Assembly (NCBI GenBank): GCA_964527595.1
Contig: CAZGPI010000001.1
Coordinates: 81,145-145,144 of the forward strand
Length of the DNA: 64,000 nt
Source of the DNA: an uncultured Pseudomonadota bacterium
Lineage (GTDB): Bacteria > Babelota > Babeliae > Babelales > RVW-14
Direction: 5' to 3'
Position numbers and translations under genes: made by a program. The notes beneath the pieces are model-generated. The model ran no database searches. It was given only the letters and a program-made list of their open reading frames with translations, and was not told the origin of the DNA. This document shows positions 390 to 45,159 of the stretch, one piece after another (the first letter of the stretch is position 1; the number at the start of each line of letters is the position of its first letter).

Positions 390-2003
390 TTATTTATCAA
401 GCAGCGTACTTACCGTCGTGATTTGATCGTGTTTTTTCTCTCTCAGCTCCGCGTTCAAAACCTGCAGATTGGCATTCTCGGTAACAACTCGAGCCGAACC
501 CTTGAGCACATCGATTTGTTGGTATGCGCCAGTCAATTGCAACCCAAGTTCAAGATTATCTCGTTCTTTCTCTTCTAGCTTTACACCAAATTTACGGTTC
601 ATGCCTTCTTGAGTTTCATAAGCGACTTGCGCTTTATCAGCTTCGGCTTGTTGACGCAAACGATCAAGTTCAAACTCCAAGCGCTTTGCCGTCAATTGAT
701 GCTCATGTAGTTCCTTGCCTTGTTCTTCAAATTTTTGCTTGAATTGATTTTTTGTGGAATTTTTTTCTTGGGTTACAACATCAACCATCGTGCGCAATTT
801 TTTAACCTCAACATCATTGTCGGTTGACGGAATCCCAACAGCAAGTTTGGTTACGGCGCTATCGACAATATCTTTAAAGCCGGGGTATGCCGACTTAACA
901 CGGCCAGTTACCTCATCGGCAACTTTGAGCACAAAGTTCCTAATCACCTGGCCGCTAAATCTAGACGTCGCCTCATTTTTTTGTGCAAATGCATTCAATT
1001 CATATAGCGCAAGTAAGCGAACCTTTTTGAGCTCATGATCACTAAGTTTTAAATTTTTGGCAACCTCAGTGAGAAACGTATCGGCTTTTCTTTGTGCTTT
1101 AACAATTTTTCTTAGCTTAATCTGTTTATTAACCACTTGATTATAATTTGGATCATCAACCTTTTGAGTTCCTCGTAATGTACGATCAAACCAAACTCGC
1201 TGATCATTGAAACGTTGTAAAAAATCTGGCAACTGTTCGGCGTCCTCGCCCTCCATTATGATCTGCTTCATAAGCAAGGTATTGGCATCAAATTCATTAC
1301 ACATCGCACGTCGCCACTCACGTGTTACATTATTCTTGTCCTTATCTAAACCATTCGCCAAACCAGGCTCAACTTGCATATCTTCACGATGCTGATGGGA
1401 CAGTCGACGAATAATCGCATCTTCGCGTTTCTTTTTACGTAATTTCAGTGATTCTTCATCGGCCTTATTGATAATATCAATGACCTTGAAAGCCGCATCT
1501 TTTTTAAGCTGAATAGCCTCTTTTTCAATTTTTTGAGCTACAGCCGCCGCTTGCTCCGATGCTTGCTTGAAAAGCTTATCGGTCTGTTGCTCGGCTCGCT
1601 CTCGAATTTTTTTAGCCTCAAGCTCAGACTCTTTCTTAAGTTGTTTTGCTCGATCTTCAATATCTGCCTTGAGATTAACTATCGATTTTTCAGCTGCCTG
1701 CTTTAAAGAAGAAACTTTAGAGTCAACATCCGATTCAAGCCGCCTGGCCGTTTCTTCAGCCTCTTGAACCAATTGGTTAACGCGCGGACTACTTGCAACC
1801 TCAACACCCTCAAGATCTGCCGTAACTTTAAATTTATCTTGCCCTGGTCGATATCCTTCTGGCTGATAAATCTCAGGCTGATTTTCTTTGAGCATTTCTT
1901 CGGGTCCCGGCATATAGGATTTGCCAGCACCCAAACACATAGTCATCATAATCATCAAGCACAAAGCCTGATTTACGCGACGGAAAAAACATGTATTCTT
2001 CAT
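390..2003 (-). CDS. exported coiled-coil protein, function unknown
   Basis: 537-aa ORF with ATG at 2003 preceded by TAGGAAA. It has an N-terminal basic plus hydrophobic leader (ALCLMIMMTMCLGAG). Long Glu/Lys/Ala/Gln-rich heptad-like stretches occupy both ends. I recognise no enzymatic motif. Confidence 0.6.
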   Translation of the reverse strand: MKNTCFFRRVNQALCLMIMMTMCLGAGKSYMPGPEEMLKENQPEIYQPEGYRPGQDKFKVTADLEGVEVASSPRVNQLVQEAEETARRLESDVDSKVSSLKQAAEKSIVNLKADIEDRAKQLKKESELEAKKIRERAEQQTDKLFKQASEQAAAVAQKIEKEAIQLKKDAAFKVIDIINKADEESLKLRKKKREDAIIRRLSHQHREDMQVEPGLANGLDKDKNNVTREWRRAMCNEFDANTLLMKQIIMEGEDAEQLPDFLQRFNDQRVWFDRTLRGTQKVDDPNYNQVVNKQIKLRKIVKAQRKADTFLTEVAKNLKLSDHELKKVRLLALYELNAFAQKNEATSRFSGQVIRNFVLKVADEVTGRVKSAYPGFKDIVDSAVTKLAVGIPSTDNDVEVKKLRTMVDVVTQEKNSTKNQFKQKFEEQGKELHEHQLTAKRLEFELDRLRQQAEADKAQVAYETQEGMNRKFGVKLEEKERDNLELGLQLTGAYQQIDVLKGSARVVTENANLQVLNAELREKKHDQITTVSTLLDK

Positions 2004-6268: not shown

Positions 6269-6748
6269 ATGAAAAAAATCATTAAAGCAGCGCTTGGATT
6301 TTTGGCGCTATTAACGGCTGGATGTGATAATGGCAAGCATTGTTGTGATTCTTGTTGTCATCACGATCATCCGTTGATTCAGTTCAAAAATGACGCTATT
6401 TATAAAATAACTCCAGCGGCAAATTTTGATAAATCAAACGCCGATGATTGCGTAATATTGATGCCAATTGATCAACAATCAGGGTTTATTCATACAGCTT
6501 ATGGAAGCCAAGTCATTAAAACACTTAATAAGTTTTTTGCTGACGCCAAAGACATATTGGTTCTCGAACTTGATAGCAGTATCCTGAAACAACGGGGAAC
6601 CGATATCCGGCCAGAAGCTAATAAGCCCGGTGGCGATATTTTCCCTCATTTGTATGGAACACAAAAGATTCCAGTTGCCGCCATCAAAGAAATAAAAACG
6701 CTCAAAAAAAATAAGCACGGCGAATGGAAAGACGCGCATAGCTTATAA
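6269..6748 (+). CDS. DUF952-family protein with lipoprotein signal and Cys/His-rich linker
   Basis: Lipobox LLTAGC follows the leader. The DUF952 signature is present (GFIHTA...LVLELD...GDIFPHLYG). A CCDSCCHHDH cluster sits directly after the lipidated Cys. Confidence 0.7.
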   Translation: MKKIIKAALGFLALLTAGCDNGKHCCDSCCHHDHPLIQFKNDAIYKITPAANFDKSNADDCVILMPIDQQSGFIHTAYGSQVIKTLNKFFADAKDILVLELDSSILKQRGTDIRPEANKPGGDIFPHLYGTQKIPVAAIKEIKTLKKNKHGEWKDAHSL

Positions 6749-11516: not shown

Positions 11517-12776
11517 TTAGCGTTCGTCTCGCATTCGACGAGCAAATGCTGCATCATCGGCCACTTGTTTATTCTTCGCATCTTCTGCAGCCTGAAGACT
11601 TCTTGCTAGCGCAAAATCAGCAGACTCCTGTTTCTTTTTTTGAACCAAAGCTGGATTAAGAGTTTCGCACATTTCGCATTTATTATCTTCAGCCTTGTTT
11701 AAAAATGTACAAGCCGGACAGACCCACTTACCATCTACTGGCGCCGTAGCGGCGCTTGCTGCCGGTCGCTTACGAGCTACCTTCACCGGCTGCGTTTCGC
11801 TTGCTCGCGCAGCACCGAAACTTTTTTTGGCACAAATATACGTAAAATCTCGTATCTGGCCACTACGCTTAACCAAAGCAGGATGTATTAAGGGGTATGA
11901 TATTTCTGCATTGTTTCTAATTTCTACCGGAGAAAATCCAGCCGAACGTAACAAAAATTGTGCATAGCGATTAAGATATTCTTCTGATGGAAACCTAAAA
12001 ACTTCCGTTTTTTCGACAGTCTCAGGAATGCCAGAGCAAGCCCCAATCACTTTATAATCGTGGATCAAGTTATTAATATGAAACCTTTCTATAAAAAGTT
12101 TTCCAGAAGCATCGTTTTTTTTATCAAAACCTGGAGAAATAGTTATTGTTTTAAGTCTTCCGTCTATCAACAGTGGCCCAAAGCTTATAGGCCTATCGAT
12201 TGGTTGACTGCCTAAATTTAAATATGTATCGTTACGCGAGCCCGTATAAGTATAAAATTCTCCATCATCTCGAAGAGCACTGCAAATTACCCTTAATTCA
12301 GCCACCGTCCATTCAACATATTTCGTAACAGAGTAATCAAATATAATTCTTTTAAATTTTCCCTTGAGCTTGTTTAAAAAAGTTAAAAAAGATGATGTAT
12401 TAAAATCAAGAGGGACAAGAAATGGGCCTTTTCGTTGGACTAATTTCCCCTCGTCATCTATCTTCAATCTATCTAAAGACACATGCGGAGATACCAAAAA
12501 AGTATAACCCTCAAGTCGTGCTGGGTCTTGATCACCTGCACCAGCACCAAGCACCATTGTTAGATTGTCTTCATCTTTAAACTTTTCCACCAAAGCGTCC
12601 AAATAATTGATTACAAATACCCTATGGCATATTCTTTCATCAAGAGCAGGCTCTCCTTCTCTAGACCATGTTGAGGCAATCGGCCTATCATCAATCATCG
12701 CAGCATTCACCAAGGCCATAGAGCTAATGCCAATTAAGCAAACAAAGCTAAACTTAATTAGAAAATTACTCTTCAC
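11517..12776 (-). CDS. exported protein with C-terminal NZF (RanBP2-type) zinc finger and UIM-like helix; N-terminal domain unknown
   Basis: A GTG start at 12776 is preceded by a strong SD (AAGGAGG), and a signal-like leader follows. WVCPACTFLNKAEDNKCEMC (nt 11667-11726) fits W-x-C-x2-C-x3-N-x6-C-x2-C. The tail reads ESADFALARSLQAAED. VLGAGAGD might be a Rossmann-type loop, but this is a weak call. Confidence 0.65.
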   Translation of the reverse strand: MKSNFLIKFSFVCLIGISSMALVNAAMIDDRPIASTWSREGEPALDERICHRVFVINYLDALVEKFKDEDNLTMVLGAGAGDQDPARLEGYTFLVSPHVSLDRLKIDDEGKLVQRKGPFLVPLDFNTSSFLTFLNKLKGKFKRIIFDYSVTKYVEWTVAELRVICSALRDDGEFYTYTGSRNDTYLNLGSQPIDRPISFGPLLIDGRLKTITISPGFDKKNDASGKLFIERFHINNLIHDYKVIGACSGIPETVEKTEVFRFPSEEYLNRYAQFLLRSAGFSPVEIRNNAEISYPLIHPALVKRSGQIRDFTYICAKKSFGAARASETQPVKVARKRPAASAATAPVDGKWVCPACTFLNKAEDNKCEMCETLNPALVQKKKQESADFALARSLQAAEDAKNKQVADDAAFARRMRDER

Positions 12777-12927: not shown

Positions 12928-14046
12928 ATGAAGAAAAATATATTGGTTACGCTCAGCCTCTTTTTTACTACAATTGCCACAATATATAGCATGGAACAAC
13001 CTCTCCCAATTGTTTACCATCATGAGTACAATATTGTAAAATCACACCTTGTAGGTAAAGTGCTTGGTTTATTAGCGTCACCATTCATTAATAAACTTCA
13101 TCCATTTGATTCAGAAAAATATGGCAAGGTTTATAACAAACTTTGTGAACGTTTTAATCTCAGCGCCAAAGATTTTTACCAACCCTATGACATTGCAAGC
13201 ATTCCAGATGGCTTTGAATTTGATGAATGGTTAGATCGAGAATTAATTGAGTTGAATATACATACCCCTGAATATCTAGCCTCATTACACAATCCGGTCG
13301 TTATTCAAAGTATCGCTGAAGTCCCAGGACTCGCTTGGCTCTCAAACAAAACATTGCAAGAGGTTATCCTTCATCCTATGCGTTTGGCAACAGCTGGGAC
13401 CTATATGGCTTGCACGTTAGCGCTAACTCATCCGCACCATTGGGCCATAAATCTTTCGGGTGGTTATCATCATGCTAAATCAAATAGCGGCAGCGGGTTT
13501 TGTTATTTTGCTGATATACCATATGCCGTAACTAAACTTTGGCAAACTAATCCAAAACTTAGGGTTATGATTATTGACCTTGACGCCCATCAAGGCAACG
13601 GATATGAAGCTTTTTTTAAGTATGATCCACGAATTGCGGTATTTGACGTTTATAATGCCAATCGTTTCCCACGAGACTATTCGGCAGCACAATACATTAG
13701 GTATCGTTATGCACTCACACCGAATATGGATGACCCAATTTCTCAAGAATCATATATGGCTTTATTGCAAATAGAGCTACCTAAAGCTATTAATGAATTT
13801 CGCCCAGAGTTAATAATTTATAATGCAGGTACCGATATTTTTGACGGCGACCCAATTGGCGGAATGCACGTATCGGCTGAGGGCATTAATGAACGAGATC
13901 TTTTTGTTTTTGATCAAGCAGAACAAAAACACATTCCAATTGCCATGATCCTCTCTGGTGGATACACACCAGAGAGCGCTGATATTATAGCGAACTCTAT
14001 AACGGCAATCTTAGGGAAAAAAGCTTTAGAAGAATTTAATAATTAA
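12928..14046 (+). CDS. histone deacetylase-family enzyme (class IV / HDAC11-like) with N-terminal leader
   Basis: Motifs present are LPIVYHHEYNI, KLHPFDSEKYGKV, SGGYHHAKSNSGSGFCYFADI, IIDLDAHQGNG and YNAGTDIFDGDPIGG. The hydrophobic leader is MKKNILVTLSLFFTTIATIYS. Confidence 0.85.
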   Translation: MKKNILVTLSLFFTTIATIYSMEQPLPIVYHHEYNIVKSHLVGKVLGLLASPFINKLHPFDSEKYGKVYNKLCERFNLSAKDFYQPYDIASIPDGFEFDEWLDRELIELNIHTPEYLASLHNPVVIQSIAEVPGLAWLSNKTLQEVILHPMRLATAGTYMACTLALTHPHHWAINLSGGYHHAKSNSGSGFCYFADIPYAVTKLWQTNPKLRVMIIDLDAHQGNGYEAFFKYDPRIAVFDVYNANRFPRDYSAAQYIRYRYALTPNMDDPISQESYMALLQIELPKAINEFRPELIIYNAGTDIFDGDPIGGMHVSAEGINERDLFVFDQAEQKHIPIAMILSGGYTPESADIIANSITAILGKKALEEFNN

Positions 14047-14049
14047 TCG

Positions 14050-14565
14050 TTATCGAATGGGCCAGGGAAAACCCAACAGGCCACCCGCCCATAACAATGG
14101 ATCATCCCCTCTAACTAAACGTTCTACGTTCATCCATTCTCCCATAGCCCACTGCCTACGAAGACGAAGATCGTGACGCGGATATCCAAATTCTTCACGT
14201 TTTGCTAGAAGATCAGTAAAACAATCTCGCCACAAAACTGCAGCGTCCATAAGGTCTTGGTTATTTAGATATTCTACGGCGCGATGGTGAGAAATCTCAT
14301 AAAATTCAATTAAAATTGGGCCAACCATTTCATCATATAAAAAATCAAGAACCTCTCTTTGCCCTGGCCGCGCTTGCTGCACTTGCTGAACGACATTGTT
14401 TATTCTCTCTTGAACTTCCTGAGCAGCCAAAGCAGGATCTTGTTCTGGTGGAAGAACCATGAAACGAAAAACATCCGGAAACATACTAAAACAAGGCGAT
14501 ATTGTTGGTAATAATAATATCGCTAAAACAAACCCAAAATGAACAATTCTTTTCTTTGTAATCAT
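14050..14565 (-). CDS. exported hypothetical protein
   Basis: ATG at 14565 is preceded by GGAGG and followed by a hydrophobic leader. I recognise no domain. It is convergent with the HDAC gene, with a 3-nt gap. Confidence 0.5.
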   Translation of the reverse strand: MITKKRIVHFGFVLAILLLPTISPCFSMFPDVFRFMVLPPEQDPALAAQEVQERINNVVQQVQQARPGQREVLDFLYDEMVGPILIEFYEISHHRAVEYLNNQDLMDAAVLWRDCFTDLLAKREEFGYPRHDLRLRRQWAMGEWMNVERLVRGDDPLLWAGGLLGFPWPIR

Positions 14566-15847: not shown

Positions 15848-16597
15848 TTAATTGATGAGTTCCAATTTTTTAAAAATTAGAGCCCACTCATTCCTCATCT
15901 CATCCGTTAAGCTTGATGATTCTGGTGCTGACAAAAAGAAATTTTTGATATTTTTTTCATTCCATGGCTCTTTAAAATCATCGGTCTTATTCATAACTAC
16001 CAGGGTATAATCAAGTTGAGGATATTTTTCGGTTATAAGATTACGAAGCTGAAGTGCTTCCTGTTTTGTGATGACAGCCCTAAAGAAAAAAAGCTTCTTC
16101 TTTGATTTCAATGCATTACGAAATCGACTTATGCGCCGTTCGTATTTTGCTTTATTTTCATCATAATCTAACAAAAAAACTTGATCGCCCACATCAACTT
16201 TGAAGTCGTGGATGAATTTAATCTTATAAGTCTGATCGATTACTTCGCGATATTTTACCGGAGGCGCAACAAGAACTTCAAGAAAACCCTTAAAATCATC
16301 GCGTATAGCACGATAAATCGATTCATATTCACTAAAACACCAGTCAAATGGGAAGTATGCTCCAGAGAGATTATTCGCTTGAAAGTGTCGCGCGGCTCCA
16401 CAATTAAATCCAAGGCTAATTACAATTTTTTCTTCTTTAAATTCGGATTGGTCATCCCAGCCCTTAGCCGTCCACTCCTCAAATCCTGGTATTGGTTGCT
16501 CAAGTTCTGGCTGCTGAGTTATTTGCCCAAAAGATAAAAATGTATACAAAAAAAATGAGCCCAATAAAACTCTAGGCATCACAAAGTTCCTTTCCAT
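15848..16597 (-). CDS. exported protein resembling the DUF1796 putative papain-like peptidase family
   Basis: ISLGFNCGAARH...YFPFDW...IHDF...KYERRISRF resembles the signature I associate with DUF1796. This rests on recollection only. An alternative ATG at 16579 (MPRVLLG..., preceded by AAAGGAA) gives a cleaner signal peptide. Confidence 0.5.
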   Translation of the reverse strand: MERNFVMPRVLLGSFFLYTFLSFGQITQQPELEQPIPGFEEWTAKGWDDQSEFKEEKIVISLGFNCGAARHFQANNLSGAYFPFDWCFSEYESIYRAIRDDFKGFLEVLVAPPVKYREVIDQTYKIKFIHDFKVDVGDQVFLLDYDENKAKYERRISRFRNALKSKKKLFFFRAVITKQEALQLRNLITEKYPQLDYTLVVMNKTDDFKEPWNEKNIKNFFLSAPESSSLTDEMRNEWALIFKKLELIN

Positions 16598-16629: not shown

Positions 16630-17082
16630 TTACGATAATAGTGGTAATAATAGCGCAACAATATCTTTGTTACCATTTCGCATAGCAATACTATAAGCTC
16701 TCCATACTTGATCATGAGCTTGTGGGCTAAATCCTGGTGCTGCAATAATGGCCTTAACAATTTCAAGATCCTTATAACAAACAGCCAAAATGAGCGCCGT
16801 GGCATCAACCCAGCGATCGCATCCATTTACGTCAGCCCCTTCATCTATAAACCTACAAACAGCGGCAACAAGCCCTTGATAATAAGCATTAAGACGATTT
16901 CTATTCGTTTTTTTAAGAAGCGTTATATCAGAAGGTTTAGCGTGAGCGGCGGCAATTGCCTCAATTAATTGCTGCGCGTTGCAAGCAATTGGCGGCATGT
17001 CTGTCATGGTAAAAATGGTATTGTATTGAACACTTGAGAGAATAACTAAAAACATAAAGGTCAATTTATCATGAATCTTCAT
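16630..17082 (-). CDS. small exported ankyrin-repeat-like protein
   Basis: A leader is followed by FIDEGADVNGCDRWVDATALILAVCYKDLEIVKAIIAAPG, which looks like 1-2 degenerate ANK repeats. Confidence 0.55.
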   Translation of the reverse strand: MKIHDKLTFMFLVILSSVQYNTIFTMTDMPPIACNAQQLIEAIAAAHAKPSDITLLKKTNRNRLNAYYQGLVAAVCRFIDEGADVNGCDRWVDATALILAVCYKDLEIVKAIIAAPGFSPQAHDQVWRAYSIAMRNGNKDIVALLLPLLS

Positions 17083-17257: not shown

Positions 17258-19141
17258 ATGAAAAAATTCACTTTATATTCTCGAATTGTTTTTGCGCAAC
17301 TTCTGGTTGTAACAATGCCCATGGTTGCCATGGAGCAGGCTCAGACACCTGAGGTATCAAGCTCATTGCCCACAACAGATCAAAGCCACCAATATCATTC
17401 TACCTATCTGCCAAAGGCTTCTGCGCTATCGCTTCTATGCAGTGGAAAAATTCTTGCCGACCATGAATTACCACACCAAATGATGGACCGTGTAATTTAT
17501 ACACTGTTTTCAGTCGAAACAAAATTTAACACATCTCCCGCCGAAATAAAGCGTTTAGAATGTGAACTTGGATCACTATTAGATGCTGGCGATTGTGTAA
17601 TGAGTACGCCTATTTTGACCAACGCCGGCAGATACTGCGAAAAGCCTTTATCTGCATGCACAGTCCCTCTAATCGATTTGCGAGAAGATATGTCAAAAAT
17701 TAGGGTAGTTATTGATCGCTTGCATCAAGATGGCATGGGCACCGGATTTAATCTCGATGAATGCGAAGACCCTGTAGCAACCCTAAGACTTCTCAATAAT
17801 ATTGCCGTGCAAGGAGCAAGGAGTGGCAAAGAAGATCGTCCAGTTGGAAACATAGCCGTTCTTTCAGTGGGGCATCCTAAAATTCTCGAATTTATTAATG
17901 CAAAAAATCAAGTCGACACGCTCGGCGAGCAATGGATATTTAACATATCGGTTAACATTGACGATGCTTTCATGGACGCATTTTCGCGTAACACAACATA
18001 TATGTTACGTGATGGGAACGAAGTATTGGCGCAAGAGCTTTTGGGGCAAATGGCCAAAAGCGTATTTATCTGTGGCGATCCTGGTATTGTTTTCATAAAT
18101 CGTCTTAATGAGGGCAATCCAACGCCAGGTGTTGGTGATTATATTGCCGTTGCTCCCTGTGGAGAAGTTGGGCTAGCCGCTGGAGAAAGTTGTCAGTTTG
18201 GTTATATCAACGTAGCAAAATTTCTTAATAAGGGACAAGAGCAATCTCTTGATATTGACTTTGAAAGATTAGCGCAAGCAACACGATTAATGGTAAGAGC
18301 ACTCGACAATGCTTTAGAGTTAAGCATTGACAAATACGCCTGTGAGCAACAAGGAAGTATTATGAGGGCAAAACGCAAGATTGGTATTGGCATCTGCGGA
18401 CTTGCCGATCTTTTCATGCTATGTAATATTTCTTATGCTGATGAACAAGCTAGAAGATTAGCTCAAGATATTGTTGCCTTCATCAATTATACTTCAAAAT
18501 TAGCATCTCATGAACTTTCAATGACAAGAGGCTCATTTGAAGCAATGGCTCTTGGAGAAGGTTGCCGATACAATAATGATCCTGGTTTTATTGAGCAACG
18601 ATTTGGAAAAATTTCAACGCCTCATGTATCCACCGCAATGTGGCATGAATTATCACAAAAAATCAGAGAAACCAAATGCTTACGAAATGCGTCGACTATT
18701 GCATTACCACCAACAGGGAGGAGTTCAATGGTCATCAATGCCTCAGCTGGAATAGAACCACAATTTTCTTTGGTTGAAGCACGCGGGCTTAACCCTATCT
18801 TGGAAAAGGCTCTTACTGATACTGGAATAATTGATCCAAATTTAATAGAAAACATAATGAAACTCGGCCGCATTGGTAAATTATCAGAAATTCCTGCCAG
18901 CATTCGCCATATCTTTTTAACCGCACTGGAGATATCTCCTGCGGATCACCTAGCCATGATGGAAGCGTTACAATTAGTCGTAGACGAATCAATCTCAAAA
19001 ACGGTTAATGTTTCACCAACTATCAGTGAGCCCGAAATTGTTGATATTTTTCATCAAACGTATTTACGAAAACTTAAGGGCATAACCATCTATAGAGATG
19101 GAAGCCGAAACAGTCAGCCTAAAAAGCTTGGGGATAGTTAG
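17258..19141 (+). CDS. nrdJ: class II (B12-dependent-type) ribonucleotide reductase homologue, divergent, with N-terminal hydrophobic leader
   Basis: Motifs present are STPILTNAGR, RPVGNIAVLSVGHPKILEFI, APCGEV...ESCQFGYIN, GIGICGLAD, PPTGRSSMVINASAGIEPQF, ISKTVNV and TIYRDGSR. The SD is AGAGG. See the finding on substitutions. Confidence 0.8.
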   Translation: MKKFTLYSRIVFAQLLVVTMPMVAMEQAQTPEVSSSLPTTDQSHQYHSTYLPKASALSLLCSGKILADHELPHQMMDRVIYTLFSVETKFNTSPAEIKRLECELGSLLDAGDCVMSTPILTNAGRYCEKPLSACTVPLIDLREDMSKIRVVIDRLHQDGMGTGFNLDECEDPVATLRLLNNIAVQGARSGKEDRPVGNIAVLSVGHPKILEFINAKNQVDTLGEQWIFNISVNIDDAFMDAFSRNTTYMLRDGNEVLAQELLGQMAKSVFICGDPGIVFINRLNEGNPTPGVGDYIAVAPCGEVGLAAGESCQFGYINVAKFLNKGQEQSLDIDFERLAQATRLMVRALDNALELSIDKYACEQQGSIMRAKRKIGIGICGLADLFMLCNISYADEQARRLAQDIVAFINYTSKLASHELSMTRGSFEAMALGEGCRYNNDPGFIEQRFGKISTPHVSTAMWHELSQKIRETKCLRNASTIALPPTGRSSMVINASAGIEPQFSLVEARGLNPILEKALTDTGIIDPNLIENIMKLGRIGKLSEIPASIRHIFLTALEISPADHLAMMEALQLVVDESISKTVNVSPTISEPEIVDIFHQTYLRKLKGITIYRDGSRNSQPKKLGDS

Positions 19142-19652: not shown

Positions 19653-19929
19653 TCATAAACTTTCTAATTATAAAAACGTTATTTTTAAATTAATATCATT
19701 TTTGTAAAACAACTCGGCAAAAAAAACAATGTGTATATTTTTGCTATGACCAGAGGCCATCGATCTCTTATTCACAATACAACAAAAGAAGAGCGTATCA
19801 TGCTGCGCAAAGAATGAGCCCATGAGAAGTCAGAGGCATTACATACTATTCCGCGTTTTTTCTGTTTTCATACTGCAAGAGCATTGTTATGATATCCTGA
19901 ACCAGACGAAGCTGCGTAGCAGCGAAGAT

Positions 19930-20006
19930 TGGCGTCCCCAAGGGGATTTGAACCCCTGTTACTAGAATGAAAATCTAGTGTCCTGACCAGGCTAGACGAT
20001 GGGGAC
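19930..20006 (-). tRNA. tRNA-Glu (anticodon UUC), CCA encoded
   Basis: The reverse complement folds as a cloverleaf: GTCCCCA TC GTCT AGCCTGGTCA GGAC A CTAGA TTTTCAT TCTAG TAAC AGGGG TTCAAAT CCCCT TGGGGAC G CCA. Length is 77 nt. Confidence 0.9.
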
Positions 20007-20025
20007 GCATTTGTTCTGTAAAATA

Positions 20026-20101
20026 TGGTGAGCCGCGTTGGAATCGAACCAACGACCCACAGCTTAAAAGGCTGTTGCTCTACCAACTGAGCTAGCGGCT
20101 C
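20026..20101 (-). tRNA. tRNA-Lys (anticodon UUU), CCA encoded
   Basis: The reverse complement folds as a cloverleaf: GAGCCGC TA GCTC AGTTGGTA GAGC A ACAGC CTTTTAA GCTGT GGGTC GTTGG TTCGATT CCAAC GCGGCTC A CCA. Length is 76 nt. Confidence 0.9.
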
Positions 20102-20181: not shown

Positions 20182-21543
20182 TTACAAAAAACGGCTACAA
20201 ATAAAGCAATAAATCAAAACACCCAGAATATCCATAAGGGTCGCCAAAAAAGGCGTTGCCGAGTGCGCCGGATCGATGCCAAGCCGTTCAAGCATAATCG
20301 GAATGAACGCGCCCATCAAAATTGATGTAATGACAATCAAAAACAACGAAAAACTTATAACAACGGCATACAATAAGGAATGTGCGGTAAAAAAGACCCG
20401 CATAAAGCTTACAGCCGCCAATATAGTTGCCATAATTAATGACATGCCAAATTCACGAATCAAGATTTTAACGCCATTTTGACGAGTAATTTCTTTTGTC
20501 GTCAGACCACGAATAACAAGCGTTGCCGACTGGTTTCCAGCATTGCCACCAGTTCCAACAAGCATAGTTAAAAAGAAAGTAATAATTGCGTACTGATTGA
20601 GTAAGGCACCATAATTTGAAAGAATAAGACTTGAAAAGCTTTGTAACAACAACAAGCCAATAAGCCAGGGTAGGCGCTGACGAATAAGGATCCACCACGG
20701 CGTGGCGAAATAGCTGTGTTCCATGGGAGACAATCCAGACATCTTGTAAACGTCTTCACTGCCTTCTTCCCTAATAATCTCATAAACATCATCGGCCGTT
20801 ATTATGCCTAAAAAGTGATGCTCTTTATCGACTACCGGTGCACAAACCAATTCATAATGTTCCATCTGGTTAACAATATCTTCCTGGTCTTCATCCACAT
20901 ATACAAGCAGTTCGTTTTTTTCCATGATTCTTGCAAGAACAATATCGGGCTTACTGAGAACTAATTTATCGAGCGTTATAAAGCCAACCACAATATTTTC
21001 GGCATTTGTTACATAGATACGATGCATAATTTCTTGTGTTGGGCTTAAGCGTTGCAATAACTCAATGGTTCGCTTAACGGTAAAATTGTCTTGCAATGTG
21101 ACCACATCGCTCCGCATACGTCCGCCAGCGGATGATGGGTCGAAACTCAGTAACGATATGATCTGGTTGCGCTGCTTTGAATGGAGTAGCTTAAGATATT
21201 TCTCTAAATCTTCATCTGAAAGATAATCGAATAAATCGGTCAATTTATCTACTGGCAGGTCCTTTAGGATGATCGCTGCCGCTTCGCTGTCAAGATTAAC
21301 CAGCAGATTTGCTTGAACATCTTCAGGTATTTTTTCAAACACCTTAACACCAAGTTCAAGCGGCAATTTTTTAAACAATTTAATCTGATATCCAAACTCC
21401 AATTGACCAATAAGCATGGCAACGTCGGCCGGATGTTGTTGAAGCAATATGTGCCACAAGTCTTTCCCGAGCCCAGAGTCTTCACTGATAATTGTCTCTA
21501 TATTATTTTCTATCTGTAGAAGGATTTTTTTTATTAACAGCAT
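20182..21543 (-). CDS. mgtE: magnesium transporter MgtE
   Basis: The architecture is an N-terminal MgtE-N region, CBS pair and 5-TM C-terminus (GNAGNQSATLVIRGL, PFLATLMDI). The track start at 21549 is GTG. The ATG at 21543 has better spacing to GGAAGG. Confidence 0.9.
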   Translation of the reverse strand: MLLIKKILLQIENNIETIISEDSGLGKDLWHILLQQHPADVAMLIGQLEFGYQIKLFKKLPLELGVKVFEKIPEDVQANLLVNLDSEAAAIILKDLPVDKLTDLFDYLSDEDLEKYLKLLHSKQRNQIISLLSFDPSSAGGRMRSDVVTLQDNFTVKRTIELLQRLSPTQEIMHRIYVTNAENIVVGFITLDKLVLSKPDIVLARIMEKNELLVYVDEDQEDIVNQMEHYELVCAPVVDKEHHFLGIITADDVYEIIREEGSEDVYKMSGLSPMEHSYFATPWWILIRQRLPWLIGLLLLQSFSSLILSNYGALLNQYAIITFFLTMLVGTGGNAGNQSATLVIRGLTTKEITRQNGVKILIREFGMSLIMATILAAVSFMRVFFTAHSLLYAVVISFSLFLIVITSILMGAFIPIMLERLGIDPAHSATPFLATLMDILGVLIYCFICSRFL

Positions 21544-21670
21544 CTTCACCCTTCCGGATCAAAAAACGTTTTACCCTACCACCCAATTGACTTAAATCTA
21601 CTGGAAAATATACTATAAGAGAATGGTTCCTTTATATTATCCCTATTTTAGCAGAAATTAAAGATTTATC

Positions 21671-22597
21671 ATGAATGGCAAAACAGAAAAACTTATATGC
21701 ACCGTCGATCATATTGGCTCGCGTTTAGATAAATTCATCTTTACCAATTTTCCCGATTATTCGCGCACCTATTTTCATGACCTTATTCAAGATGGCCATA
21801 TCACCGTAAATGACAAACCGGCCGCTAAACCAAGCTATACATTAAAAGCTGACGATGTTATCTCAATCACGTTCCCACCGGTCAAAGCATATGACCTCAC
21901 CCCAAAAAAAGTTGATTTTGAAGTAATCGATGTCCAACCAGATTTTATCGTTATCAATAAACCTGCCGGCCTTGTTGTTCATGCTAGTGACAGCAATAAA
22001 GACGAAGTCTCCTTGGTAAATGGCCTCCTTTATTATTTTCAAGAACTCAAGGATCTTCTTGTTGGTACCGATGATTACCGTCCCGGGATTGTTCATCGTA
22101 TCGACCGCGACACATCTGGGCTCCTTATTGTTGCGCGAACGCAAAAAGGTCAAATTGCACTCAGCAAGATGTTTCACGACCGCTACATTCACAAAACCTA
22201 TCTTGCTGTTGTTGAAGGACACTCGCCACACGATGGACGTATTACACTATCAATTGGACGCGACGCAAAAGAACGACACAAAATGTCGCACGCTGGCATA
22301 TGCAGCCGCGACGCTTTAACCAACTACTCAACACTTGCATATTACCCAGAAAATTCATTAATAGCGGCCAATATCATTACCGGTCGCACACATCAGATAA
22401 GAGTTCACTTTTCAGCCATCGGTCACCCGCTCGTTGGCGACCAAACATATGGCAAAAAAAGCCACTTTATCAGTCGCCAAGCGCTCCATGCTTGGAACAT
22501 GTCCTTTACATATCAGGGCAAGGAATATACCTATCGATGCCCAATGCCTCAGGACATGAAGCTTTTGGTTGAAAAATTAAAAACACTTCCTATATAA
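21671..22597 (+). CDS. rluD: RluA-family 23S rRNA pseudouridine synthase (RluD-like)
   Basis: An S4-like N-terminus is followed by the HRIDRDTSGLL catalytic motif and GRTHQIRVH. Confidence 0.85.
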   Translation: MNGKTEKLICTVDHIGSRLDKFIFTNFPDYSRTYFHDLIQDGHITVNDKPAAKPSYTLKADDVISITFPPVKAYDLTPKKVDFEVIDVQPDFIVINKPAGLVVHASDSNKDEVSLVNGLLYYFQELKDLLVGTDDYRPGIVHRIDRDTSGLLIVARTQKGQIALSKMFHDRYIHKTYLAVVEGHSPHDGRITLSIGRDAKERHKMSHAGICSRDALTNYSTLAYYPENSLIAANIITGRTHQIRVHFSAIGHPLVGDQTYGKKSHFISRQALHAWNMSFTYQGKEYTYRCPMPQDMKLLVEKLKTLPI

Positions 22598-22639
22598 AAA
22601 ACAAAATCACGAAATCCAAGCTCTTTTTAGGAATTTATC

Positions 22640-23170
22640 ATGTTCAAACGTTTGCATACTGTTATTTTCGTTAGCCTTTTTCTCATCACTACTACACCAA
22701 TAATGATTAATGCTATGCCTTCGGCATCACCGGCGTCATCAAAAGGTGCTGCTGCCTCAATTACAAAGGGCGTATTAAGCGTCATCGTTGCTGGTGGCTT
22801 TAATATGAACACCCAAGATGAAAATGGAAGCTCGCCATTGCATTATGCGGTGCGCACGTCCCCACTTCCTGTTTTTAAAATAATTCTTGAGAGCGGAATT
22901 AACGTCGATCTTATAGATAAAAATGGCCAAACAGCTCTGCATCTTGCTGTAATTGCCAACGAATTAAAAAGGGTTGACGATCTCCTTCGCCATGGAGCTC
23001 GCGTTGACATTAAAGATAACGACGGTAAAGATGCTCTTTATTACAGTCACGGGGAAGTGAGACTCCTTATTCAGCAATATGTTGATGTTTCACCGCACGA
23101 TATTGTTATCACTTTTCCAGAAGATTACCCGCCTATTGCCGACGATTCCCGTGGTTGTATTGTACAATAA
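22640..23170 (+). CDS. exported ankyrin-repeat protein ending in CaaX box (CIVQ)
   Basis: A leader is followed by three ANK repeats (GSSPLHYAV..., GQTALHLAV..., GKDALYYS). The C-terminal four residues are C-I-V-Q (23156-23167). Confidence 0.85.
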   Translation: MFKRLHTVIFVSLFLITTTPIMINAMPSASPASSKGAAASITKGVLSVIVAGGFNMNTQDENGSSPLHYAVRTSPLPVFKIILESGINVDLIDKNGQTALHLAVIANELKRVDDLLRHGARVDIKDNDGKDALYYSHGEVRLLIQQYVDVSPHDIVITFPEDYPPIADDSRGCIVQ

Positions 23171-23177
23171 TTAGTTA

Positions 23178-24338
23178 ATGGGGTTTACAATGTTCAGATT
23201 TTCACGCGCCAACGTTATCAGCACAGCCTTATTCATCATTTCAATGTTGGCTTTTCTAAGTGCAATGGAATCCCAGGATCCAAGAATTCCAGATTATATT
23301 CTTGCCGAAGACAATATGTTTGCTCTGGCGCGTTCTTTTTACCCAGAATTTTGTCCAAAATCAACAATGGTTGATTTTATGCGCATAACAGAATCGCTTG
23401 CCGAAAAATCAACCGCCCTGGCAACAACTGAAGCTCAACGGCTTCTTGCTCGGCTAATCACAAAGCCAGAACAAATTGAACGAGTTGCGCACCCCGCCGA
23501 CCCACAATATGCTCTTGATATTCGCATACATCACCCAGCACTGTTTGCCGCGGCCATTGGAAATGGTTATTTAATTGAGTTTATTGGACTAGAAACAATT
23601 CCGCTTAATAATTTCATCAATCCATATAATGGCCTTTCGGTTTTTCATTATGCTGCTTACTACAATCAACCAGGCATGTCATGGTATCTTGCAACAATAG
23701 ATGCCCTCGAACGAGAAGAACCAATTGACTTAGATATTATGGATGGCCAAAGCAATACTCAACTTCATATCGCCGCAAAACAAGGTCATGCTCATTATGT
23801 GAGGCAAGCGCTGATAACCGGAGCCCGAGCCAATGCGCGTAATGGCACCGGCCAAACACCATTTGCGCTAGCCGCCAATGAAGAAACACGCAACGTTATA
23901 ACTGAACATCTTCAGAGTCTTACGAGTGGCGATCAAAGCAAAAAAAACGCCTTTGCGACAGGAAACACATCTCGAGATATGGCTTTTATTCGCGCAATTG
24001 AAATAAGTGCAACGGACCAGGAAGCGACAATAAAGACAGAAAAGCTCTTGAAACAACACGACCTTAACGTCAACGCTCAGGATATTAATGGGTGCACCGC
24101 TTTACATTTGGCTGCAAAAAAGAATTTTGAATCAACATATCAGTGCCTCCTTAAACGAAAAGATATCAATATTAACGCCCGAGACAATGAAAATCACACA
24201 GCCAAAGACTATGGCCTAGAAGAAACAAGACAAGACGTCGCTACAGGGCTGGTTAACGTACAAACGCAAACAGATCAAGAGACAGACATTCCGCAAATTG
24301 ATGACCTTCAAGAGCTCGTTGTGTGTTCTGTCCAATAG
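23178..24338 (+). CDS. exported ankyrin-repeat protein ending in CaaX box (CSVQ)
   Basis: A leader is followed by ANK repeats (NTQLHIAAKQGHAHYV, GQTPFALAA, GCTALHLAAKKNF). The C-terminal four residues are C-S-V-Q (24324-24335). An alternative ATG lies at 23190. Confidence 0.8.
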   Translation: MGFTMFRFSRANVISTALFIISMLAFLSAMESQDPRIPDYILAEDNMFALARSFYPEFCPKSTMVDFMRITESLAEKSTALATTEAQRLLARLITKPEQIERVAHPADPQYALDIRIHHPALFAAAIGNGYLIEFIGLETIPLNNFINPYNGLSVFHYAAYYNQPGMSWYLATIDALEREEPIDLDIMDGQSNTQLHIAAKQGHAHYVRQALITGARANARNGTGQTPFALAANEETRNVITEHLQSLTSGDQSKKNAFATGNTSRDMAFIRAIEISATDQEATIKTEKLLKQHDLNVNAQDINGCTALHLAAKKNFESTYQCLLKRKDININARDNENHTAKDYGLEETRQDVATGLVNVQTQTDQETDIPQIDDLQELVVCSVQ

Positions 24339-24557
24339 ATTAATTGAATAAAAAAACAACCGGACAAGAGTCCCAAATAAGTTTTGACTTTTATTTAAAA
24401 AAGCGGCAAAATGTAATCGTTATTTACTAGATTAATTAAGGAGAACTCGTATTTTTCTGCCTAAAACGCACAAAAATCAGCTTCTGGGTTAAAAGTAATG
24501 AGAAAATTAGGAAAAACGGGTTATTTCATTCTAAATAATAAGCAGTAAGGATTTAGC

Positions 24558-24821
24558 ATGGCAACGAGTAAAGGTGGCGGTTCTACAAGTAACGGCCGCG
24601 ATAGTCAAAGCAAACGTCTTGGTTGCAAGCGTTTTGATGGTCAAATCGTAAATTGTGGCACCATTTTGGTACGTCAACGTGGAACAAGACATCATCCAGG
24701 TAAGAATGTTAAGCGTGGAAGCGACGATACATTATTTGCAGTGGCCAATGGCATTGTTAAATATCATTCAGGATTAAAAGGAAGAAGGTTTGTTTCTATT
24801 TTTCCAGCAGAAGCAAACTAA
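24558..24821 (+). CDS. rpmA: 50S ribosomal protein L27
   Basis: The sequence [25 protein letters not shown]...VRQRGT is diagnostic. The SD is TAAGGA. Confidence 0.95.
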
Positions 24822-24876
24822 TTAGGTGAGAGATAGAAGAGTAGTGAATAATTAAGTCATTTTTTGTGGAGAGACG

Positions 24877-25791
24877 ATGCAATTTACAACCGAGTCTGTA
24901 AAATATCGCTTTGATTTTTTGAAGTTACGTTATGTATGGCTAGTTGTTTCAATTGCATATTTGGTTGTCGGCATCGGCGCTTATGTAATGTTCGGTGGTT
25001 TTAAATACCACATCGACTTTACTGGTGGAGCCGAAATCCGTCTTTCTTTTGAAAAATCTGTCGATATTGTCCAACTTCGCGCAGTTATCGGTGAAGGTGG
25101 CTGGAAAGACTCAGTTATCCAAGAAACGGGAACAGACAAGCGCGACTTTATGATCCGCTTGGGTGGCGATCTTGATGCTAACCTCGAACCAAAAATCGTT
25201 GAGGCTTTAAAGACCGGCATTGCTGGCAATAAAGCAACAATCGTAGGCATGTCCAAGGTTGGCGCCGAAGTTCGATCTGAAACAACGTGGAATGCAATAA
25301 AGGCTGTTTTATTAGCCATGTTGATTCTGTTGCTTTACATTGCCATTCGCTTTGAGTTTCGCTTTGGTTTAGGGGCTGTGGTTGCCTTGGCTCACGATCT
25401 TTTGGCAATCCTTGCGTTCTTAGTTTTAACCAGAACACAGGTGTCGTTGGATGTTTTGGCCGCCATGATGGCTATTCTGGGATATTCAGTCCATGATACC
25501 ATCGTTATTTTTAGCAGAATACGAGAAAACATGAAAAAGTTGCCGAATCTATCTGAATATGATATTGTCAACTTGAGTATTAATCAAACATTGAGTCGTA
25601 CTCTTCTGACTAGTTTTGCAACATTGCTTTCGGTTGTTGCCATTTTGATTCTAGGTGGAGAAACGTTACGCGGCTTGTCACTCATTATGTTTGTCGGTAT
25701 AATCGTTGGTACTTATTCATCGATTTACATTGCAAGTCCTGTAATGTTGGCTGCTCGAGCAAAAAAACAAGCAAAAATTGAATCGGTATAA
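24877..25791 (+). CDS. secF: protein translocase subunit SecF
   Basis: The IDFTGGAEI motif and a 6-TM layout are present (HDTIVIFSRIREN). No secD is adjacent. Confidence 0.9.
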   Translation: MQFTTESVKYRFDFLKLRYVWLVVSIAYLVVGIGAYVMFGGFKYHIDFTGGAEIRLSFEKSVDIVQLRAVIGEGGWKDSVIQETGTDKRDFMIRLGGDLDANLEPKIVEALKTGIAGNKATIVGMSKVGAEVRSETTWNAIKAVLLAMLILLLYIAIRFEFRFGLGAVVALAHDLLAILAFLVLTRTQVSLDVLAAMMAILGYSVHDTIVIFSRIRENMKKLPNLSEYDIVNLSINQTLSRTLLTSFATLLSVVAILILGGETLRGLSLIMFVGIIVGTYSSIYIASPVMLAARAKKQAKIESV

Positions 25792-34142: not shown

Positions 34143-34736
34143 TTAGCCCATGAGAATTTCGTTAACAAAATTGGTAATGATTTGTAAGTTTTGCTTGAGC
34201 TTGCTGACGGTAAAAAGAAGCTCATTAAGCTTAATTGGTGCCGATGTTTTTTTTCCATCGCCTGTAGCTTTAAAGATTCGTGTTGTTAAGTCGGTAAGTT
34301 TTATTTCTTCATTACTAAGTTCACCCGCGAACACAATAACCGCACGATTATTATTTGGATATTTTTGAGAAAGTTCCTTTAATAATAAGGCTCGCTGTTC
34401 AGCTTTTGATGCCATTTTTTTTGTTTGTATTATTTCAACAAGGTCGCTGCGATTGCTCCAGTAGATATCTTTAATTTCTTTTTCTAATAACAAACCAGTA
34501 TCGGTCGTTTGGGACGATTCGAATGAAATGATCTTATGCATTGTACCATTTGCATCACGCTCAATTTTCGCCGATTCCAAAAGTTCTTTGATATTTGATT
34601 GTGGGGTATTTTGTGAAATTGTTTCAATTTTGTTACGCAAATTTTCAATTCTTGGCATAAAGCTACGCGCAAGTATTACTGACGGCATTATGGTAATTGC
34701 TGCAAGTATGAATATATTTACATTCTGATTCTTCAT
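34143..34736 (-). CDS. exported hypothetical protein
   Basis: The SD is AGGGAG and a leader follows (IFILAAITIMPSVILA). It is tightly packed between ftsY and prmC. Confidence 0.5.
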   Translation of the reverse strand: MKNQNVNIFILAAITIMPSVILARSFMPRIENLRNKIETISQNTPQSNIKELLESAKIERDANGTMHKIISFESSQTTDTGLLLEKEIKDIYWSNRSDLVEIIQTKKMASKAEQRALLLKELSQKYPNNNRAVIVFAGELSNEEIKLTDLTTRIFKATGDGKKTSAPIKLNELLFTVSKLKQNLQIITNFVNEILMG

Positions 34737-38305: not shown

Positions 38306-38920
38306 ATGATACGCGGACGCTATTTTTTATTCATAGTTTTTTTAGGGTTGAGCAGTGGTTCTATTTTTGCCATGGAGCGTGAAGTTGATTCATTACTCCC
38401 CGTCTACCAAAAACGATTTTGTGGTATTGTTAGCTTTTATTGTGGTGCGAAAGGCCGAATAGCAGTTGCCTCAGCTGAAGTCAAAACAGCAATAGCTGAA
38501 CGCGTAGAATCCTTGCGTGCCAGCATAAAGTTGAATGGGCTTCCAATTAGTGCCTTTGATTTGATTGTTAATCAAAAAGACGGCGAAGGAAGCAGTCTCC
38601 TTTCAAGCTCTTGTTTTTGGGGAAATCTTCCGGTTGTTCAGGCGCTTTTGGCTATCCCTGAAGTATGCGTTACAGAAAAAGATTTAGAAGCTGTACTTGC
38701 CGGCAAAAATGCAGCAATAGGACAACGACGCCTTGGCAAAACCATTAATCATGGCTTAGACAGTGATTATAGAGAAATCATTAAACTATTCATTCAGCAT
38801 AAAAACATTGATGGTTTTTCATTATCTGATGAAGCGCTGATAGCCTTTTCGTTTTTTTGTCCCAACGATTCGGATAAAAATTTTATCGATTCTTGTTATA
38901 GAATTTATCGAAGCAATTAA
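38306..38920 (+). CDS. exported hypothetical protein with degenerate ankyrin-like repeat
   Basis: A leader is present. GSSLLSSSCFWGNLPVVQALLAIPEV resembles one ANK repeat. Confidence 0.45.
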   Translation: MIRGRYFLFIVFLGLSSGSIFAMEREVDSLLPVYQKRFCGIVSFYCGAKGRIAVASAEVKTAIAERVESLRASIKLNGLPISAFDLIVNQKDGEGSSLLSSSCFWGNLPVVQALLAIPEVCVTEKDLEAVLAGKNAAIGQRRLGKTINHGLDSDYREIIKLFIQHKNIDGFSLSDEALIAFSFFCPNDSDKNFIDSCYRIYRSN

Positions 38921-43825: not shown

Positions 43826-44467
43826 ATGAAAAGTTTTTTGCTTTTTATCTTTTTCTGCTGTTGTTTTTTTAATACACATGCATCGCTGAGCACCTTTTTC
43901 AAAGAGTTTGGTCGATTTAATGAAAAAAACAAACAACATCTTGGCGAAGTTTTTGATAATTTCCATTCCGTTGAAGAAGGGCAATTTTATCGCTCTCAAC
44001 AATTATCTCCGCTAGTTCTTGATAAACACATTAAAACAAATGGTATCAAAACGTTGATTTGTTTGCGTGGTGACGGTGATACTGAGTGGTGGAGAAATGA
44101 AAAAGCGGTTGCCGAGCATAATGGCACATTGGTTTTTTCTTTGAGCCTGAGCGCTGTTTACCTAACCACAAAAACCGATCTTATGAAAATATTAACGATT
44201 TTCCAAGAAGCCCCGCGACCAATTCTTGTCCATTGTATTGGTGGCGCCGACCGTACCGGAGAAGTTTCAGCCTTATGGGTTCTTGACCAACAAAAAAAAG
44301 ATAAAAGCGAAGCCCTTAAGCAACTGGCTATAACGTATGGTCATCGAAAATATAAAAATTCGGCTAAAGATTTTTTAATCGAGATTTGGCAGGGACGCGA
44401 CTGGGCCTTTAATGTCTATGACCACAAAAATTATCCATCGCTATGTAACCCTTCAGATTTGCGATAA
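43826..44467 (+). CDS. exported CX5R protein-tyrosine/dual-specificity-type phosphatase (Siw14/OCA, COG2365-like), copy A
   Basis: A signal peptide is present. NFHSVEEGQFYRSQQLSP...GIKTLICLRG is followed by the P-loop VHCIGGADRTGEVSALW. Confidence 0.8.
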   Translation: MKSFLLFIFFCCCFFNTHASLSTFFKEFGRFNEKNKQHLGEVFDNFHSVEEGQFYRSQQLSPLVLDKHIKTNGIKTLICLRGDGDTEWWRNEKAVAEHNGTLVFSLSLSAVYLTTKTDLMKILTIFQEAPRPILVHCIGGADRTGEVSALWVLDQQKKDKSEALKQLAITYGHRKYKNSAKDFLIEIWQGRDWAFNVYDHKNYPSLCNPSDLR

Positions 44468-44520: not shown

Positions 44521-45159
44521 ATGAAAAGGTTTTTGTTTTTAGTATCATTTTGTTGTTGTTTTTCAGCACAGGCATCGCTAAGCAATATCTTCAAAGAACT
44601 TACCCAATTTAATGCAAAAAACAGGCAACATGTTGGCGAAGTTTTTGATAATTTTTATACGGTCGATGAAGGGCAATTTTATCGTTCGCATTTGCTGCCG
44701 CCACAAACGCTTGATAAATATATTAAAAAAATTGGCATTAAAACGGTGTTACATTTGTGCGGGGAATTAGATGGTGAATCGTGTGCCAGCGAAAAAGCGG
44801 TTGCTGAGCAAAATGGCATATTCTTTTTTTCTCTTAGTATGAGTGCTGTTTATCTGACCAATAATACCGACCTTATGAAGGTGCTAACTATTTTCCAGGA
44901 AGCCCCCCGCCCAATTCTTGTACATTGCATGGGTGGTGCTGATCGTACCGGAGAGGTTTCGGCTTTATGGGTTCTTGATCAGCAAAAAAAAGACAAAAGC
45001 GAAGCCTTCAAACAACTGGCTATAACCTATGGTCATCGAAAATATAAAAATTCGGCTAAAGATTTTTTAATTGAGATTTGGCAAGGGCGCGAATGGGCCT
45101 TTAATGTCTATGACCATCGCAATTATCCATCGCTATGCAGACCTTCAGATTTACGATAA
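44521..45159 (+). CDS. exported CX5R phosphatase, copy B (tandem paralogue)
   Basis: The architecture matches copy A, with P-loop VHCMGGADRTGEVSALW. The SD is AAAGGA. The 3' end overlaps the convergent cyclin gene by 37 nt. Confidence 0.8.
   Translation: MKRFLFLVSFCCCFSAQASLSNIFKELTQFNAKNRQHVGEVFDNFYTVDEGQFYRSHLLPPQTLDKYIKKIGIKTVLHLCGELDGESCASEKAVAEQNGIFFFSLSMSAVYLTNNTDLMKVLTIFQEAPRPILVHCMGGADRTGEVSALWVLDQQKKDKSEAFKQLAITYGHRKYKNSAKDFLIEIWQGREWAFNVYDHRNYPSLCRPSDLR

Follow-up and report, generated by a model that had tools for sequence, protein, structure and literature searches.

Two adjacent ankyrin-repeat genes of an uncultured Dependentiae bacterium end in CaaX boxes and encode putative substrates of a host farnesyltransferase

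The window analysed here is a 64,000-nucleotide stretch of contig CAZGPI010000001.1 (assembly GCA_964527595.1, positions 81,145 to 145,144 of the forward strand), and all coordinates below are counted from its first letter. Two adjacent genes of this window, which we call ank1 and ank2, encode small ankyrin-repeat proteins whose last four residues form CaaX boxes (a cysteine, two usually aliphatic residues and a variable terminal residue), the type of tail that is recognised by protein farnesyltransferase (FTase). We describe the two genes, the quality of their boxes, their relatives and their N-terminal leaders, and we discuss them as candidate effectors that would be lipidated by the host cell.

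Two adjacent ankyrin genes with CaaX termini

On the forward strand, ank1 (22640-23170) encodes a protein of 176 amino acids that ends in CIVQ. It is followed by ank2 (23178-24338 (+)), which ends in CSVQ and encodes 386 amino acids, or 382 from the ATG at 23190, the start of P0001. The NCBI gene call for ank1 (P0036) begins at Met26, the methionine at the leader junction described below, and gives 151 amino acids. The pair is flanked by a gene for an rluD-like pseudouridine synthase (21671-22597) on one side and by rpmA (24558-24821) and secF (24877-25791) on the other. Scanning 21500-24900 for promoters and terminators returned nothing informatively above the shuffled expectation.

The codons and stops, read directly, confirm the position of the two boxes given in an earlier note on this DNA. 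The box C-I-V-Q of ank1 occupies 23156-23167 (+) as tgt att gta caa, with the stop taa at 23168-23170; the box C-S-V-Q of ank2 occupies 24324-24335 (+) as tgt tct gtc caa, with the stop tag at 24336-24338. The last residues read ...DDSRGCIVQ and ...QELVVCSVQ, respectively. The CaaX cysteine is the sole cysteine of ank1.

Both reading frames score above the curated Pfam cut-offs for Ank_2, Ank, Ank_4 and Ank_5 (PF12796, PF00023, PF13637, PF13857). For Ank_2, which has a cut-off of 27.3 bits, ank1 reaches 82.7 bits (E=2.9e-23) and ank2 reaches 61.2 bits (E=1.4e-16). The AlphaFold models, computed from shallow input alignments of 23 and 5 sequences, fold the repeats of both proteins into a core of high confidence and leave the final ~25 residues disordered. 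In ank1, the ankyrin core (22757-23089 (+), approximately residues 40-150, with Pfam Ank_2 at 44-126) has a predicted local distance difference test (pLDDT) score of ~79-98, and the acidic linker behind it (23090-23155 (+)) belongs to a disordered end, residues 151-176, with a pLDDT of 44-52. In ank2, a family-specific N-terminal domain (23352-23714 (+)), delimited by alignments with P0189, P0213, P0002, P0211 and L009, leads into the ankyrin repeats (23706-24257 (+)), which are assigned by Pfam and by AlphaFold with Foldseek; the Foldseek matches of the model are solely ankyrin or DARPin structures. A disordered acidic linker (24261-24323 (+); residues 358-382, pLDDT <50) again connects the repeats to the box. 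Since the C-termini are disordered in the models, the predicted CaaX tails should be accessible on a flexible linker, as FTase needs.

Independent Logan assemblies from two sequencing runs contain both genes with unchanged tails, at 99.96% (L001) and 100% (L002) identity, which excludes an assembly artefact. The earlier note had called the genes tandem ankyrin genes. Their adjacency and ankyrin content hold, but a tandem duplication is rejected as the source of the motif, because the similarity that BLASTP detects between ank1 and ank2 is confined to the repeats (35% identity over 63 amino acids). This comparison indicates that ank1 and ank2 are no recent duplicates, and that the motif would either have arisen twice or have outlasted near-total divergence.

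Quality of the boxes and chance expectation

We judged the quality of the boxes by the training sets of Berger et al. 2022 (PMC9231725, S1 File). There, 489 of the 8000 Cxxx tetrapeptides are prenylation-positive in yeast genetic screens based on Ras or Ydj1, and the 508 lowest-scoring Cxxx make up the negative set. The positive set includes both CIVQ and CSVQ, in agreement with the earlier proposal that the two tails fit the FTase pattern. Neither of them is in the Ydj1-derived list of the same file, so both entries probably came from the Ras-based screen, which requires full processing. Among the 57 open reading frames (ORFs) of at least 100 amino acids in the window, the only other terminus with Cys at -4 is CLDS, in 50540-51064. 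The earlier note had considered this tail unlikely to work and had seen no other convincing CaaX in the window; CLDS is indeed in the negative set, and both statements stand.

For the chance estimate, the positive list was weighted by the amino-acid composition of the 57 window proteins, in which Cys makes up 1.4%. A random protein would end in a positive Cxxx with a probability of 1.2e-3, corresponding to 0.07 expected per window. Under this strict definition, the probability of at least two per window is 2e-3, and that of an adjacent pair is ~8e-5 per window and ~2e-3 per genome of 1300 genes. When 33% of all Cxxx are counted as prenylatable (the lax definition), at least two per window have a probability of 0.03, and an adjacent pair has 1e-3 per window and 0.03 per genome.

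Cys at -4 is not favoured in ankyrin proteins in general. It is found in 5 of the 148 top ankyrin matches, no more commonly than Cys at -3 (4 matches) or at -5 (7 matches), and the idea that CaaX is a general trait of ankyrin proteins is rejected on these counts. No positive-set CaaX was found among ~200 ORFs of related and other loci. Two unrelated ankyrin matches have positive-set boxes, namely P0018, a sturgeon ANKDD1A-like protein with the end KKCTVS, and P0247 (1057 amino acids) with the end AACRIQ, and thus the combination of ankyrin repeats and CaaX occurs sporadically elsewhere.

Relatives of ank2

Word-indexed and exhaustive HMMER searches reveal that ank2 is a member of a small divergent family; the exhaustive list is dominated by giant multi-repeat ankyrin proteins, and lower-ranked family members may be missed. 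The N-terminal domain of the family has the signature HP..YALD.R.H.P.LFAAA.GN ... HYAAYYNQP ... MDG.SNTPLH. One member, P0189 (603 amino acids), is 40% identical to ank2 and has about ten extra repeats, a leader that ends in ...PLFA/MEGQ (the slash marks the leader junction here and below) and the tail CSIQ. CSIQ also belongs to the yeast positive set (PMC9231725), and the chance of such a positive box among the 5 relatives of ank2 is ~6e-3. Contigs assembled from the SRA runs that also yielded the window organism carry another member, P0213 (695 amino acids; L018, 59-2146). A single metagenome-assembled genome (MAG) accounts for P0002, P0211 and a further partial copy, and L009 (CAZBUZ010000084.1) holds a 3'-truncated copy.

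The complete C-termini of the family, six with that of ank2, are CSVQ, CSIQ, KKCRCLK, HTRLS, EQLAE and YSLMA. Judged by these termini, the CaaX box recurs in a homologue of 40% identity, yet not every member of the family has it. Metagenomes scanned with the family N-terminal domain gave generic ankyrin matches only (L016, L017), and the search of IMG/VR gave no ank2-family match. In the relatives with 81-85% GyrB identity (L022-L025), the gyrB neighbourhoods are rearranged compared with the window and end short of the rluD-rpmA interval.

We notice two further features of this family. The tail of P0213, ...AKRKKCRCLK, is polybasic and rich in Cys, with Cys at -3 and -5 and no CaaX, and it resembles another kind of membrane-targeting signal. 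On L021, two family members stand in tandem, the second of which may be disrupted at its N-terminus, as its ORF contains a run of X.

Sec-type leaders that stop at a methionine

Both proteins carry an N-terminal Sec-type leader, assigned by sequence inspection and hydropathy. The leader of ank1, MFKRLHTVIFVSLFLITTTPIMINA (22640-22714 (+)), has the n-region MFKR and is directly followed by Met26 at the junction ...IMINA/MPSAS. The leader of ank2, MFRFSRANVISTALFIISMLAFLSA (23190-23264 (+)), has the n-region MFRFSR and is directly followed by a Met at the junction ...AFLSA/MESQ. In both cases, a Lys/Arg-containing n-region and a hydrophobic stretch precede small residues at -3 and -1, and the 10-residue hydropathy maximum is 2.9. 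The leader-Met junction that had been noted before in both proteins is thereby seen again.

A charged and hydrophobic leader that stops exactly at a Met is found in ~13 of the 57 window proteins. Besides ank1 and ank2 (22640-23170(+), 23178-24338(+)), these are 390-2003(-), 11517-12776(-), 12928-14046(+), 14050-14565(-), 16630-17082(-), 17258-19141(+), 34143-34736(-), 38306-38920(+), 45123-45830(-), 53034-54497(-) and possibly 60016-60771(-). Examples of the junction are INA/MPS, LSA/MES, IYS/MEQ, VA/MEQ, IFA/MER and QAA/MPE. As Met is only a small share of residues, its presence at the leader junction is far from random. In ordinary exported proteins of the window, for example HtrA-type proteases or lipoproteins, the leader lacks the junction Met. 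The same leader-Met junction occurs in homologues from other Dependentiae MAGs (P0189, P0213, P0002, L009, P0186, P0244, P0276 and P0307; also L022 2764-4047). The junction Met could be the ancestral start of an acquired leaderless gene, a sign of dual start sites, or a sorting signal.

Leader-Met proteins with recognisable domains are eukaryote-like. They comprise a cyclin (45123-45830 (-); PF08613, E=7e-27, and PF00134), a histone deacetylase (12928-14046 (+); PF00850, E=2e-49), two RanBP2-type zinc-finger proteins (11517-12776 (-) and 53034-54497 (-); PF00641), a third ankyrin protein (16630-17082 (-)) and a ribonucleotide-reductase-like protein of 627 amino acids (17258-19141 (+); PF02867 barrel at residues 171-612, E=2e-72). 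Eukaryote-like domains behind the same type of leader imply that the leader-Met class acts inside the host. The cyclin, the histone deacetylase and the RanBP2 zinc-finger proteins are candidate effectors of the host cell cycle, chromatin or nuclear transport. The reductase-like protein has an N-terminal extension of ~150 residues with the leader-Met before its barrel, which is odd for a cytoplasmic enzyme.

The organism and its relatives

Several metagenomic proteins match the GyrB of the window at 76-85% identity, and named proteins of Candidatus Dependentiae, Babeliales and candidate division TM6 match it at 65-69%. On these identities, the organism is placed among the uncultured Dependentiae (Babeliales). 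The hosts of the Dependentiae isolates known earlier are amoebae. C. destructans lyses a heterotrophic flagellate as an intracellular pathogen; it invades the cytoplasm of its host and releases outer-membrane vesicles (PMC6561590). Signal peptides are present on 44% of its proteins, including 78% of its 98 ankyrin proteins (PMC6561590). By analogy at the level of the phylum, from the GyrB placement and the isolates described there, the producer of ank1 and ank2 presumably lives inside eukaryotic cells.

Two MAGs that are labelled 'uncultured Pseudomonadota bacterium' carry ank2-family genes: CAZBUZ (L009) and CAZLQB0100000xx (L003, L021; P0002/P0211). The CAZBUZ MAG also holds a GyrB (L024) that is 81% identical to that of the window. 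This identity indicates that the MAG comes from a close Dependentiae relative and that its Pseudomonadota label is wrong. We suspect that the MAG with P0002 and P0211 is likewise mislabelled.

Other features of the window

The GC skew switches sign near 24000, in the intergenic region between ank2 and rpmA (24339-24557); it is ~-0.1 over 19-24 kb and positive beyond, and the window minimum of the cumulative skew lies here. A replication origin at this switch is rejected, as no cluster of DnaA boxes is found nearby, and a local or strand-bias effect is more likely. A bacterial class A RNase P RNA is located at 58773-59169 (+) with 225 bits, and two tRNA genes are located at 19933-20006 (-) and 20029-20101 (-); the ORFs 58881-59117 and 19868-20086, which lie over the RNase P RNA and the tRNA genes, are spurious.

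Two tandem paralogues of 213 and 212 amino acids (43826-44467(+) and 44521-45159(+)) have Cys-rich leaders, FFCCCFF... and SFCCCFS..., and near-identical ends, NYPSLC[NR]PSDLR. A putative papain-like cysteine peptidase of the DUF1796 type with a leader is encoded at 15848-16597(-). A small lipoprotein at 6269-6748(+) contains the Cys/His-rich stretch GCDNGKHCCDSCCHHDHP; its homologue adjoins gyrB in the relatives L024 and L025 and is annotated as DUF952.

A proposed route to host membranes

We consider it probable that ank1 and ank2 are secreted ankyrin effectors of an obligately host-associated bacterium, which would be farnesylated by the host through their CaaX boxes and anchored to host membranes. 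The leader would first guide each protein to the Sec translocon, where it would be cleaved just before the junction Met. The protein would then have to cross the outer membrane into the host cytoplasm, for example by a secretin, by outer-membrane vesicles or by direct cytoplasmic residence of the bacterium, and this step is the weakest link of the proposal. Host FTase might bind the exposed CIVQ or CSVQ and transfer a farnesyl group onto the Cys, given that both tetrapeptides are yeast substrates on reporters. The terminal Gln favours FTase over geranylgeranyltransferase type I. Trimming and methylation of the tail by Rce1 and Icmt at the endoplasmic reticulum would probably follow. Finally, the lipid would tether the ankyrin domain to host membranes from the cytosolic side, where its repeats would bind a host partner. 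Since the acidic linkers contain no polybasic or second-Cys signal, endomembranes are a likelier destination than the plasma membrane.

Several observations weigh against this proposal. The window contains no type III or type IV secretion genes, and no window gene accounts for delivery past the periplasm, while ank1 and ank2 bear leaders of the Sec type. The specificity data concern yeast FTase acting on reporter proteins, not the FTase of the presumed protist host. For ank1, a word-indexed protein search found no orthologue, and its 22 matches are generic ankyrin proteins, 0 of which end in Cxxx. In the ank2 family, four of the six complete C-termini have no CaaX, and the other two are CS[VI]Q. 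A shared C-terminal module, P-x-I-x-D-D ... C-x-[VI]-Q, was considered for ank1, ank2 and P0189 and rejected, because the similarity upstream of the box is not significant (shuffle p = 0.02, 0.13 and 0.59).

Alternative explanations

The last three of these observations, namely an ank1 without orthologues, ank2 relatives that mostly lack the motif, and tails with no significant similarity upstream of the Cys, also speak for coincidence. On this account, both Cys(-4) tails would be neutral and without function, and would have been noticed because CaaX was sought; by chance, a genome of 1300 genes is expected to hold 1.6 (strict) to ~6 (lax) tails that look like CaaX. Coincidence nevertheless appears unlikely to us. 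For an adjacent pair, the strict expectation is 8e-5 in a window and 2e-3 in a genome, and the lax one is 0.03 in a genome. Each of the two genes combines ankyrin repeats with a leader and has a box from the experimental positive set. Furthermore, a third protein, P0189, ends in CSIQ, which has a chance of ~6e-3 among 5 relatives, and the single Cys of ank1 falls exactly at -4.

The genes or their tails might instead be relics of a eukaryote or a giant virus with a prenylated ankyrin protein, so that the CaaX is kept but unused in a protein that never meets FTase. Eukaryotic ankyrin proteins with CaaX do occur among the matches, such as the sturgeon ANKDD1A-like P0018 (KKCTVS), and the junction Met may once have been the start of a gene that was acquired without a leader. 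However, the eukaryotic and viral homologues show generic repeat similarity only, at no more than 31-39% identity over partial coverage, and none is found in IMG/VR. An unused tail of four residues on a disordered linker should decay fast, yet the box is present in three proteins that have otherwise diverged to at most 40% identity. We regard a relic as improbable.

A non-prenyl role of the terminal Cys is a further alternative; the residue might form a disulfide in the periplasm or at the surface, serve for covalent attachment, bind metal or be S-palmitoylated by the host. Sec-type leaders, which make the oxidising periplasm the default destination, and the Cys-rich, polybasic, non-CaaX tail KRKKCRCLK of the family member P0213 would suit such a role. 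We nevertheless consider it very improbable. FTase requires the exact -4 spacing, an aliphatic a2 residue and a terminal Gln, and none of these alternatives does; ank1 has no second Cys for an intramolecular disulfide; and no bacterial system that reads a C-terminal C-x-[VI]-Q is known to us.

Comparison with known prenylated proteins

Salmonella SifA is a CaaX effector that is prenylated by the host. PRL phosphatases, with the ends CCIQ and CCVQ, belong to the same C-a-a-Q class as the boxes described here. Yeast Ydj1, which ends in CASQ, is an FTase substrate of this class as well. Unlike ank1 and ank2, Ydj1 and the PRL phosphatases are endogenous cytosolic proteins without signal peptides. 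In addition, the CASQ of Ydj1 is 'shunted', that is, left uncleaved, whereas CIVQ and CSVQ probably come from a screen that needs full processing.

The nearest parallel, already drawn in the earlier note, is AnkB of Legionella pneumophila, which macrophages and Dictyostelium farnesylate on its CaaX (PMC2916131). AnkB is likewise a small ankyrin protein of an intracellular parasite of protists, its tail serves host FTase, Rce1 and Icmt (PMC2916131, PMC5506055), and the logic of anchoring on the cytosolic face of host membranes would be the same. The differences are considerable. AnkB belongs to a member of the Pseudomonadota and reaches the host through the Dot/Icm type IV system, its box ends in Cys (169-CVLC) rather than Gln, and it has a functional F-box; ank1 and ank2 belong to the phylum Dependentiae, have N-terminal Sec-type leaders and show no detectable F-box.

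The idea of an F-box came from LPPELIEQII in P0002 and LPDEILQLV in L009, and is unsupported by Pfam, a PDB profile search, PDB phmmer, and AlphaFold with Foldseek. In Pfam at E<=10, no F-box is found in ank2, P0002, P0189 or P0213, and the partial relative L009 gives a sub-threshold match to PF12937 (E=0.29). The AlphaFold model of the ank2 N-terminal domain is of low confidence, and a cryptic F-box could escape the structure search. With the F-box unconfirmed and a Sec-type leader in place of Dot/Icm delivery, ank1 and ank2 resemble AnkB in logic, and their membership in the AnkB type is not supported. The analogy of ankyrin repeats with CaaX is thus what remains of the parallel.

Similar likenesses are found with other effectors. 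The Legionella Pel proteins PelC and PelE (PMC13081727) also use C-terminal CaaX boxes for host prenyltransferases and are targeted to membranes or vacuoles. Unlike ank1 and ank2, the Pel proteins and SifA are type III or type IV substrates of Pseudomonadota with unrelated domains, and some of them are geranylgeranylated. The secreted ankyrin proteins of C. destructans (PMC6561590) come from the same phylum, combine Sec-type leaders with ankyrin repeats and are presumed to be host-manipulating effectors. In the literature searched, we found no report on CaaX or prenylation in Dependentiae. The host-prenylated effector is a type already known from Legionella, and it is unreported for Dependentiae in that literature.

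Implications for effector delivery in Dependentiae

To our knowledge, FTase is found only in the eukaryotic cytosol. A CaaX box maintained on proteins with a Sec-type leader would therefore signal onward transfer to the host cytosol. If the box is under selection and the leader is cleavable, the two features together may be genetic evidence that Dependentiae pass Sec-exported proteins into the host cytosol, and the leader-Met class (~13 proteins in the window) may be the cargo of an undescribed delivery route. We put this forward only tentatively. If it were true, the route could be dissected with the CaaX proteins as its natural reporters.

Dependentiae are widespread and almost wholly uncultured parasites of protists, and their genomes are rich in signal-peptide ankyrin proteins of unassigned destination and function. 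If the tails are non-functional, they represent a rare coincidence in two orphan genes. If the CaaX boxes are functional, they would provide a first concrete mechanism for two such ankyrin proteins, namely membrane anchoring through lipidation by the host. Host prenylation of bacterial effectors would then extend from Pseudomonadota to a deep-branching phylum, and it would offer a simple assay for Sec-leader effectors that reach the host cytosol, making effector delivery in Dependentiae tractable.

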